From contig JBGAFZ010000010.1 of assembly GCA_044227005.1 (NCBI GenBank), positions 3,285-67,284 on the forward strand: 64,000 bases of DNA, given 5' to 3'. This DNA comes from Aggregatilineales bacterium. GTDB lineage: Bacteria; Chloroflexota; Anaerolineae; Aggregatilineales; Phototrophicaceae. Of this stretch, positions 7,234 to 8,835 are shown piece after piece. The notes under the pieces are model-generated. The model saw only the letters and a program-made list of their open reading frames with translations, made no database searches and was not told the DNA's origin. Every line of letters begins with the position of its first letter. Within the stretch, counting starts at the first letter, position 1. A program made the position numbers and the translations under genes.

Positions 7234-8835
7234 GTGTATTGGTTAGAAAAGAGTACACGCGTGTTTAAAACTTACAAATCCCAAAGCTCACGCAAGGTTA
7301 GCCGTAAAAAGCATACGCCTGATGAATCGCTCGTTACACATTCCCCTGCCCCACAACATCCTACATTACAGATGCAATCGTTGATCGGTAACCATGCGAC
7401 ACAACAGATGATCCAACGGATGCCGACGCACGGGGTGATTATTGGGAAGCTGGGACAACCGAAAGCTGATGTGACGGCCTTCGGCAAGGTGATTAAACAG
7501 AACGCTACTAAGTATCGGGCGGTGCTGAACAGTGTACAGGCCTACGACCAATATTTGATCAAAACCAAACTGGCAACGGATAAGAGTACGATACAAGGCC
7601 AGTTCCAAGCGGCGATTACCCTGCTAAACAATATCATCACGGCGATTAACGGTTATCAAGGTGAAAAAGGCAAGAAGGCGGTTTACATCCTCGGGTTAAA
7701 GCCACAGATCGAGGCGGAGAAAAATAAAGTTGCGGTTTCGATGCTGCGGGTAATCAGCAAGCCAGTGGATTACAGCTTCGGACAACCGTCTTTCGGTACG
7801 ATATTGCGGCCTGATTCAACGGTTGATGTTTATGACAAGAATAAGGTTGGTGGGGAACGAGGCGGGAGCAGCGAAGTCACCAAATTTGGCGGAACGGGGC
7901 CACAGGGTTACTTCAAAGAAAATAAGAATACCCTGACCAATTTTGAAAAAGGGATGCCGGAAGGTCTGAGCCAAGTCAAACAGGATGAATTCACCAGCGA
8001 GGCGGATCTTAAAGTACTCGAATCTACAGGTGGCAATTTTGAAAAGTATAATGCCCTGAAGAATGAGTATGAATTGGGCGTGAAAATGGTGGGCATCGAC
8101 TCGGAAAACGCGCGCATGGCGAAACGCGATGTGGCGATGTCGCGGTTGAATGACCTATTAGGTGCGGGGGTTATTGCCAAAGCACAGATGGCGGTACGGC
8201 ATACGGACGGGGGTAACGTCAGCGGCAGCTTGATGGAAGACGCCAGCAAAAAGGGAAAATCGGGCTTCAATATGGCGAAGGATGGCGACTTTTATGATCC
8301 ATCCGCAGGCGGGACTAAGGACAAAACAGATCAGGTTAGCCTCGAAGACCCTGAATTGATGCGCCAGCTTTCCCGTTTACAATTGATTGACTTACTGGCG
8401 CTACAAGTGGATCGTAACCGCAAGAATTATTACATCCAAACGGATGGGGCGGGCAAGGTCATCGGGCTGGTGGGCATTGATAACGACTTTTCAATGGGAA
8501 CGAGTGTCAATGTCGAGGGACGTAACCAAGAATTGCCGGGTATCAGCCGTTATGTTGATGAAGAGTTAGCGAATGCGATCTTGAAACTCGATATCGAGAT
8601 GTTGAAGGCGTTGATGCAAGACCTACTCAGCGAGGCTGAAATCGGGGCGCTGGTATCCCGCGTGAAGAAGTTACAGGAATTCTTGAAACCGCTAAAGGAT
8701 CAGGGGAAACTGATTAAGCCGAATGAATGGGATGGCGCGATGGCGAAGAACTTACTTGCGGAAAAAATCCCCGGTAAGAGCATCCCGAAAAACTACTATT
8801 CGATGCTGGTTGAAGAGGCCAAACGTAAGAAATGA
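7234..8835 (+). CDS. Putative WXG100-associated effector; C-terminal half has PI3K/PI4K-like (atypical kinase) motifs
   Basis: 533-aa ORF with GTG start (alternative ATG 7372 = MQSLIGN...). Gly-rich GGSSEVTKFGGTGPQGYFKE, AKRDVAMSRLNDLLG, catalytic-loop-like QVDRNRKN, then GIDNDFSMG. N-terminal LQMQSLIGNHATQQMIQR motif. Stop overlaps the next start (ATGA). Confidence 0.6.
   Translation: MYWLEKSTRVFKTYKSQSSRKVSRKKHTPDESLVTHSPAPQHPTLQMQSLIGNHATQQMIQRMPTHGVIIGKLGQPKADVTAFGKVIKQNATKYRAVLNSVQAYDQYLIKTKLATDKSTIQGQFQAAITLLNNIITAINGYQGEKGKKAVYILGLKPQIEAEKNKVAVSMLRVISKPVDYSFGQPSFGTILRPDSTVDVYDKNKVGGERGGSSEVTKFGGTGPQGYFKENKNTLTNFEKGMPEGLSQVKQDEFTSEADLKVLESTGGNFEKYNALKNEYELGVKMVGIDSENARMAKRDVAMSRLNDLLGAGVIAKAQMAVRHTDGGNVSGSLMEDASKKGKSGFNMAKDGDFYDPSAGGTKDKTDQVSLEDPELMRQLSRLQLIDLLALQVDRNRKNYYIQTDGAGKVIGLVGIDNDFSMGTSVNVEGRNQELPGISRYVDEELANAILKLDIEMLKALMQDLLSEAEIGALVSRVKKLQEFLKPLKDQGKLIKPNEWDGAMAKNLLAEKIPGKSIPKNYYSMLVEEAKRKK

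Follow-up and report, generated by a model that had tools for sequence, protein, structure and literature searches.

The 64-kb stretch of DNA analysed here over its whole length (contig JBGAFZ010000010.1 of an Aggregatilineales bacterium, hereafter the window) carries a kinase-like gene that is set between a gene for an FHA-domain protein and two small genes of the WXG100 family. With fair though limited confidence, we take its product to be a cargo of a contractile injection system (CIS), or of an extracellular CIS (eCIS), whose effector domain resembles the type II phosphatidylinositol 4-kinases (PI4KII). The gene and its parts are the following, residue numbers here and throughout being those of the 533-aa product of the open reading frame (ORF) that is obtained mechanically from GTG 7234.

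7261 to 8835, + strand: the putative kinase-like effector gene, 524 aa from GTG 7261 (533 aa for the mechanical ORF from GTG 7234)
7261 to 7425, + strand: leader, residues 10-64, a basic stretch predicted to be disordered, followed by a helix with MQSLIGNHA and by the IQRMP junction
7372 to 7398, + strand: MQSLIGNHA, in the helix of the leader
7411 to 7425, + strand: IQRMP junction, the end of the leader; in fused relatives DUF4157 is inserted within the leader
7426 to 7818, + strand: N-terminal helical domain, residues 65-195, found family-wide with or without DUF4157
7819 to 8832, + strand: predicted PI4KII-like kinase domain, residues 196-533, assigned by model, Foldseek, profile and conservation
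7858 to 7878, + strand: G-loop GGSSEVT of the kinase domain
7915 to 7917, + strand: candidate ATP-binding Lys228 of the kinase domain
8404 to 8427, + strand: catalytic loop QVDRNRKN of the kinase domain, residues 391-398
8473 to 8487, + strand: metal-binding loop GIDND of the kinase domain, residues 414-418

The real start is probably GTG 7261 rather than GTG 7234, because the former is preceded by the Shine-Dalgarno-like GAAAAGAG 7 nt upstream, because homologues begin with MF(K/R)T at the matching position, and because a database protein that is 99% identical to the one encoded here (P0001) likewise has 524 aa. At its other end the gene runs into its neighbor, its stop codon sharing nucleotides with the start ATG of the first WXG100 gene (ATGA); scans for promoters and terminators stayed at chance level. 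A preliminary description of this DNA had listed a series of motifs, and GGSSEVTKFGGTGPQGYFKE, AKRDVAMSRLNDLLGAGVI, GSLMEDA, LQVDRNRKN and GIDNDFSMG do occur in the order that it gave, the Gly-rich stretch appearing with GYFKE ahead of AKRDVAMSRLNDLLGAGVI, just as PTLQMQSLIGNHATQQMIQR is found near the N-terminus of the translated ORF 7234 to 8835. Judged by an alignment of 55 homologues, in which their residues are conserved, these motifs are not a product of chance.

The same description had regarded the protein as a kinase of the PI3K/PI4K type and had suggested Foldseek as a check. An AlphaFold2 model, for which the 55 homologues served as input, reached a predicted local distance difference test score (pLDDT) of 87.4 and a predicted TM-score of 0.83, and when it was compared with the PDB by Foldseek, a bilobal kinase fold matching PI4KII was found: the best 12 matches are all PI4KII alpha or beta (E 4.6e-6 to 4e-5, probability 1.00), and PI4KIIIb, Fam20C, VPS34, CotH, CtkA and HipA come next. 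The TM-scores to PI4KII are modest (0.29-0.34 by the full-length 533-aa query and at most 0.50 by the target) because the query contained the leader and the N-terminal domain as well. A profile confined to the kinase domain placed PI4K2B and PI4K2A at the top among the PDB sequences, at E-values of 0.2-0.45 that are not significant alone, and its alignment laid the LQLxDxLAxQVDRNxxNY of the family onto PI4K2A, with QVDRNxxN falling on TDRGNDN and GIDND on AIDNG. The signature that had been singled out beforehand, a DRxxxN loop followed by (I/V)D(H/N)(G/D)F, is represented by QVDRNRKN and GIDND, which map to the two PI4KII loops. Sequence relatives supply a further bridge, as three of them (P0145, P0180 and P0198, with 60.5, 37.1 and 29.0 bits) pass the cut-off of 27.1 bits for PF00454 (PI3_PI4_kinase) and match the window's protein at E-values of about 1e-20 to 1e-27, which amounts to transitive homology; among the 55 homologues, nine match PF00454 below threshold. 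TIGR03843, the SCO1664 family, is matched weakly by 30 of the 55 (best E 7e-8) and by the window's protein at E=0.036 over residues 293-482, with 13.4 bits that miss the cut-off of 172.4. Other searches against PDB sequences were uninformative: phmmer and a full-length profile yielded spurious designed repeat proteins only, and P0145 as sole query had no match. A known defence-system or phage protein was ruled out, given that nothing significant emerged when the protein was scanned with Pfam, NCBIfam, PADLOC and PHROGs. Together, the Foldseek matches, the loop alignment and the relatives that pass PF00454 uphold the assignment to the PI3K/PI4K type.

The pattern of conservation points in the same direction. 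Asp393 and Asn398 occur in 55/55 homologues, Asp416 and Asp418 in 54/55, and Gly210 and Phe227 also in 54/55, and the best-conserved part of the domain is the catalytic C-lobe. Lys228 lies in a predicted strand (225-229) that follows the G-loop, its equivalence to K152 of PI4KII alpha being one of position only. By alignment and model, the kinase domain is conserved in the manner of an active enzyme with an intact active site and not in that of a decayed fold, and the protein is apparently competent for catalysis.

Ahead of the kinase domain, the leader is basic (7 K/R versus 2 D/E), residues 1-37 and 52-58 are predicted to be disordered (pLDDT <50), and among close homologues it is one of the best-conserved regions of the protein. 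Family members come in short forms of ~500-560 aa, to which the window's protein belongs, and in longer forms, in which an inserted DUF4157/eCIS_core separates the LQxxxGNxA motif from the invariant IQRMP junction. The preliminary description had likened the N-terminus to a leader of the DUF4157 type, and this proved sound: of 164 members, 94 have [LIVMF]Q..GN.A ahead of the kinase domain, as against 9 of 1091 unrelated background ORFs, and the motif also occurs in two of six eCIS_core proteins without a kinase domain and in a protein of a CIS locus that lacks this domain. The latter, of 458 aa, is encoded in a Chloroflexota CIS locus (L091, 10377-11753, - strand) by a gene that adjoins PAAR and lies between the counterpart of the window's FHA-domain gene and the CIS ATPase; its leader reads LQRTVGNRA...VQRLM and its C-terminus contains HELTH (an HExxH motif), with no kinase domain and no Pfam match. 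It is probably, to judge by its leader, a second type of cargo with the same tag, and as a kinase-less protein that shares the leader it independently supports the view that the leader is a modular cargo tag of these CIS loci. The N-terminal helical domain that follows gave a confident model when treated separately (pLDDT 91.3) and no significant fold when that model was compared with the PDB by Foldseek, the best match being at E 1.3 to generic helical bundles (FAT, MIT, BteA131). Targeting to membranes through an MLD was considered and is not claimed, with Pfam MLD matching weakly in 5/55 members (E>=0.049) and the N-terminal model having no significant Foldseek match.

The kinase-like family is large, with 1,656 representatives at E<=1e-3 in Chloroflexota, Paenibacillaceae, Clostridia, Cyanobacteria, Myxococcota and Chlamydiales, and eCIS_core/DUF4157 is fused N-terminally to the kinase domain in 17 of the 55 homologues. 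It is likewise present in 7 of 10 representatives that are long and distant, and at 20 of 78 genomic loci, counted at species level, one ORF contains both domains. When the CIS proteins of Chloroflexota loci were used as queries against these 78 loci, a CIS-type AAA ATPase was found within 10 kb in 19 of them, 15 of which count as CIS-linked by the AAA ATPase alone; clostridial loci often have the ATPase gene immediately beside that of the kinase. The fuller cases are two Cohnella loci with sheath and tube genes as well as the ATPase (L017, L018), a cyanobacterial locus that adds Pvc16 and PAAR (L049), and an Anaerolineales locus (L041) in which a gene for an eCIS_core-kinase protein is directly followed by Pvc16_N, sheath and tube genes, as Pfam confirmed for this locus. 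At one clostridial locus (L038) the adjacent AAA ATPase was verified and the genes downstream are not CIS genes. Relatives with more than one effector domain are known as well, the kinase-like domain being fused to an ADP-ribosyltransferase exotoxin domain in Oscillospiraceae (L033, 9032-12019), to Hanks-type Ser/Thr kinases in a Chlamydiales metagenome-assembled genome (MAG; L072) and in an unclassified uncultured bacterium (L066), and, in P0145, to a second copy of itself, as a tandem duplication within one 1,387-aa protein.

The interpretation that we prefer on these grounds would run as follows. The disordered, basic N-terminus together with the LQxxxGNxA...IQRMP helix, which we propose from sequence, model and analogy to be a CIS loading sequence, would be recognised by the AAA+ ATPase of a CIS, whereupon the CIS would take up the protein and carry it into a target cell. 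There, the kinase domain would move phosphate from ATP onto a substrate of the target cell, with Lys228 binding ATP, Asp393 and Asn398 forming the catalytic loop and Asp416 binding metal; the substrate could be a phosphoinositide, another lipid or a protein. The DUF4157 fusions, the CIS linkage, the enriched leader, the fast evolution of the gene relative to its neighbors, the toxin-type fusions and the presence of both the cassette and a full CIS on one contig of the closest relative all argue for such a cargo, and the window's protein fits the layout of a cargo without DUF4157.

Several observations pull the other way and are the reason why we do not put this more strongly. The 64-kb window contains no CIS gene and no FtsK/SpoIIIE ATPase, and no DUF4157 was found in the protein, in its neighbors or anywhere else in the window. 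That the source genome possesses a CIS is inferred by analogy with its closest relative, the Aggregatilineales MAG contig JBGAHG010000008.1, which has the order FHA431-PadR-kinase (66%)-WXG1-WXG2 at ~227-241 kb and a complete CIS at ~44-65 kb (AAA, Pvc16_N, sheath, two gp19 tubes, a 1,444-aa protein, CIS_tube, a VgrG-like spike and gp25), so that ~170 kb lie between the CIS and the cassette even on the same contig. Several homologues without DUF4157 reside in ordinary metabolic neighborhoods. The tight translational coupling to the first WXG100 gene finds no explanation in a pure CIS model. As for the enzyme, Pfam returned nothing for the window's protein at E<=0.1, the gathering score of PF00454 being missed, Lys228 is replaced in 11 of the 55 homologues, and the fold cannot separate a lipid from a protein substrate, because the nearest structural neighbors of PI4KII alpha are protein kinases.

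The genes around the kinase-like gene bear directly on the alternatives, and are these.

5339 to 6634, + strand: FHA431, a 431-aa FHA-domain protein that looks, by eye, as if built of two repeats, each a ubiquitin-like segment and then FHA
6640 to 7233, no strand: repeat-filled spacer from the FHA gene to the kinase gene, with a 96-bp unit in 2.3 tandem copies at 6884-7106
8832 to 9125, + strand: WXG100 gene 1 (WXG1), 97 aa, without a literal WxG; Pfam WXG100 at 36.9 bits against a cut-off of 27.3
9174 to 9443, + strand: WXG100 gene 2 (WXG2), 89 aa, with a WMG motif; Pfam WXG100 at 41.1 bits against the same cut-off

A 115-aa "ORF" at 6885-7232 is merely the translated 96-bp repeat, and the 137-aa ORF 4824-5237 was dropped as a member of the cassette, not being conserved in related loci. 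Part of the spacer also belongs to a dispersed intergenic repeat, all copies of which are on the + strand (6707-7106, 9139-9156, 15193-15316 and 19262-19313); its core TACCACAGAGGCAC is present in 8 copies where 0.25 would be expected, and AACCGCCAAGNCGCCAAG in 6 copies where 0 would be expected, one of them between the two WXG100 genes.

When FHA431 and WXG2 were traced outward into related genomes, both led to a Chloroflexota supercluster, which has a CIS arm (PP2C, a ~710-aa FHA protein, the 431-aa FHA protein, in many cases PAAR, followed by AAA ATPase, Pvc16, sheath, tubes and further genes) and a divergent arm (WXG1, WXG2 and a ~1,400-aa FtsK/SpoIIIE ATPase, to which a Ser/Thr kinase and another FHA protein are sometimes added). 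In related Chloroflexota, FHA431, a presumed phospho-dependent regulator, has PP2C plus the ~710-aa FHA protein on one side and the CIS AAA ATPase on the other. The supercluster was seen in L090 (1-21284), in the whole of L108, L111, L112 and L115, and in L089. The cassette of the window, which can be written FHA431 - [variable slot] - WXG100 - WXG100, is by this tracing a detached piece of the supercluster, and the kinase gene is, on the same comparisons, the variable and fast-evolving occupant of the slot beside FHA431: across the shared loci, identities are 51-65% for the kinase, 84-88% for FHA431, 91-93% for WXG1 and 94-99% for WXG2. In relatives the slot contains PAAR (L108, L111, L115), PadR (L001), an IS605 element with a P450 gene (L003) or, next to PAAR in L091, the leader-bearing 458-aa HExxH protein described above. 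A further relative (L013, 7029-9005, + strand) has a divergent 658-aa kinase-like paralogue, with the leader LQRTLGNHA and the motifs VDRHAGN and GIDND, between the FHA431 gene and the main kinase gene, so that the slot can evidently hold an array of such genes.

The alternative that survives best, although we consider it unlikely, is that the protein is a type VII-like substrate, exported by an EssC-like FtsK/SpoIIIE ATPase with the WXG100 pair as co-substrates or targeting partners. By analogy with LXG toxins and their small helical partners, this would account for the overlap between the kinase stop and the WXG1 start and for the helical nature of the N-terminal domain. It would also account for the position of the kinase gene directly upstream of the WXG pair in 4/4 genomic loci with an identity of 50% or more and in 4/5 informative metagenome loci (the metagenome scan was anchored on WXG2; the FHA431 alignment had no sufficiently conserved stretch). 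Likewise, the gene next to the pair on its downstream side is, in the wider clade, that of the ~1,400-aa FtsK/SpoIIIE ATPase, which comes right after the orthologous pair in 10 related loci; in distant loci with this ATPase, WXG2 is 75% identical. However, the pair accompanies the kinase only within the loci of at least 50% identity, no pair was found near the more distant kinase homologues that were examined, and the pair is found without the kinase across the wider clade. Moreover, a Pfam search of the window's protein for an LXG, WXG or T7SS_signal domain found none, its N-terminal domain has no significant fold match, and no FtsK/SpoIIIE ATPase is encoded in the window. The leader and the N-terminal domain also occur in relatives that have no WXG genes nearby and are linked to DUF4157 and CIS, and a type VII route would leave the family-wide CIS linkage unexplained. 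The preliminary description had envisaged a secreted effector that uses the WXG100-like proteins downstream as helpers and is followed by no immunity gene. That both ORFs are of the WXG100 family is confirmed by Pfam, the lack of an immunity gene is correct, and the kinase and leader parts of the proposal stand; the helper part does not in the form stated, given that adjacency is limited to the subclade of at least 50% identity, that the protein has no LXG/WXG-like domain and that the family-wide link is to CIS. The pair is a conserved part of the Chloroflexota CIS plus FtsK/SpoIIIE supercluster and not an accessory specific to the kinase.

It is conceivable, if rather more doubtful still, that the two kinds of machinery belong together, such that a lineage of Chloroflexota would possess a hybrid apparatus in which a CIS and a WXG100/EssC-like module are functionally coupled under FHA, Ser/Thr kinase and PP2C control, the WXG pair would act as adaptor or co-cargo, and the enzyme would be a lipid kinase that is injected into eukaryotic grazers and rewrites their phosphoinositides. 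If true, type VII components and a CIS would for the first time be linked in function, and the delivery of a phosphoinositide kinase by a CIS would likewise be without precedent.

A role inside the producer cell seems to us improbable to a slightly greater degree. A cytoplasmic regulatory kinase could, by analogy with the Ser/Thr kinase, PP2C and FHA set of intact superclusters, phosphorylate a component that is read by the FHA protein and in this way control the CIS or WXG secretion. Its gene does adjoin the conserved double-FHA gene, intact superclusters hold Pkinase, PP2C and FHA genes where the detached cassette of the window has no Hanks-type kinase, and the relatives of the SCO1664 family are ordinary cytoplasmic proteins. 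Yet a regulator of conserved partners should not diverge to 51-65% when those partners remain at 84-99%, and the DUF4157 fusion, the disordered leader, the toxin-domain fusions and the tandem paralogues in the slot suggest a cargo, as does the fact that in several phyla the gene adjoins that of the CIS loader ATPase. Finally, an inactive pseudokinase scaffold, or a kinase fold turned to another chemistry such as the nucleotidyl transfer of SelO-type pseudokinases, would be in keeping with a candidate ATP-binding lysine present in only 44/55 members and with a catalytic loop that reads DRN instead of the canonical DRH in 32/55, but is highly improbable, because even very divergent members keep the catalytic Asp/Asn and the metal-binding Asp with no or almost no exception, which argues for a conserved chemistry of the phosphotransfer type, and because PI4KII itself reads DRG and not DRH.

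Returning to the injected cargo as the preferred interpretation, we note that it does not represent a new kind of system, because one family member already bears the automated annotation "PI3K/PI4K catalytic domain-containing" and because DUF4157 toxins are well known. Nevertheless, the protein is most probably injected as an effector, and effectors of this kind have yet to be described for contractile injection machines: in the searchable literature, no account was found of a PI4KII-like kinase serving as cargo domain with a CIS or DUF4157, and none of a CIS clustered with WXG100 and FtsK/SpoIIIE genes of the type VII kind. Most predicted CIS cargo has no recognisable effector domain, and 983 of 1,130 DUF4157-containing predicted toxins have no other annotation (Danov et al. 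2024). Here, one large family can be given a PI4KII-like fold with an apparently intact active site, which would add a phosphotransferase class to the CIS effector repertoire. The short leader LQxxxGNxA...IQRMP may be a portable loading tag, and a conserved Chloroflexota co-cluster of CIS, WXG100 and FtsK/SpoIIIE genes is brought to light.

A few other features of the window are recorded for completeness. A 620-aa protein (45928-47790, - strand) that has TPR repeats, a TIR domain at its N-terminus and a PPC domain at its C-terminus resembles a conflict system and is unrelated to the kinase finding. Three paralogues of ~190-210 aa (13055-13690, 20577-21215 and 21392-21961, all on the - strand) share the motif ADDGRIN(R/H)(P/A)P(W/Y)HFGGD and have, by eye, a hydrophobic N-terminus like that of a signal peptide; the one that was scanned with Pfam (13055-13690) had no match. 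Two tandem paralogues at 31154-32398 and 32459-33757 (- strand), alpha/beta hydrolases of the PAF-acetylhydrolase/PETase-like type, are identical over their first ~23 residues, and a third gene for such a hydrolase lies at 33819-35207. At 15433-15924 (- strand) a 163-aa protein of DDRGRGGNHPEPGDDRGRG repeats, again with a signal-peptide-like hydrophobic N-terminus by eye, is encoded opposite a His/Asp-rich ORF (15399-15830); as both ORFs occupy opposite strands of the same DNA, one of them must be spurious. An IS-type transposase gene (DUF772 + DDE_Tnp_1_6; 59354-60862, - strand) is located near the end of the window.

Compared with known systems, the locus resembles that of the LXG toxins of type VIIb secretion systems in having a large effector gene beside two genes of the WXG100 family for proteins of ~90-100 aa, with an FtsK/SpoIIIE ATPase in related loci. 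It differs from them in that the protein has no LXG domain, the small partners are encoded downstream and not upstream, there is no immunity gene, and the link of the family is to CIS and not to a type VII system. Similarity to the actinobacterial PI3/PI4-kinase-like SCO1664 family (TIGR03843) is weak, and the architecture and context of the window's protein are different. With the type II PI4Ks, the best structural match, it has in common a DRxxxN loop followed by an IDN(G/D) loop and, by position, would also share the G-loop and the beta3 Lys that come before them in the same order. It is bacterial, falls below the Pfam model and carries an additional N-terminal leader and helical domain; by sequence, it does not count as a true type II PI4K, because identity is 12-15% and the CCPCC palmitoylation motif is absent, the whole protein being devoid of cysteine.

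Among injected toxins, the published architecture of the eCIS-associated toxins (EATs) has an N-terminal DUF4157 and a C-terminal toxin (PMC8213781, PMC11297309). Like EATs and DUF4157 polymorphic toxins, the window's protein has a disordered leader followed by a variable C-terminal enzyme domain, and many of its homologues carry DUF4157 beside CIS genes; an immunity gene is missing, as it is in many EATs. Unlike EATs, for which DUF4157 within two genes and a CIS operon within ~ten genes are characteristic, it has no DUF4157 and is not near CIS genes. The only kinase among the listed toxins of the Photorhabdus virulence cassettes (PVCs) is Tox-Peptide Kinase (Zhang et al. 2012), which was ruled out as the same domain, being a Ser/Thr kinase of the lantibiotic-synthetase type with other motifs. 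The general layout of eCIS cargo starts with a disordered N-terminal domain as loading sequence, may include DUF4157 and ends in a C-terminal effector domain that varies (Zhang 2012, Geller 2021, Danov 2024, 2026 PROCIS preprint); the CIS AAA+ ATPase needs the disordered domain for loading but can do without DUF4157 (preprint 10.64898/2026.05.27.728243). The AlgoCIS cargoes Cgo1 and Cgo2 and the PVC payloads Pdp1 and Pnf have this layout as well. Whereas loading sequences are not conserved between those systems (preprint 10.64898/2026.05.27.728243), in the family described here one recognisable motif of the putative loading sequence, LQxxxGNxA, recurs across phyla.

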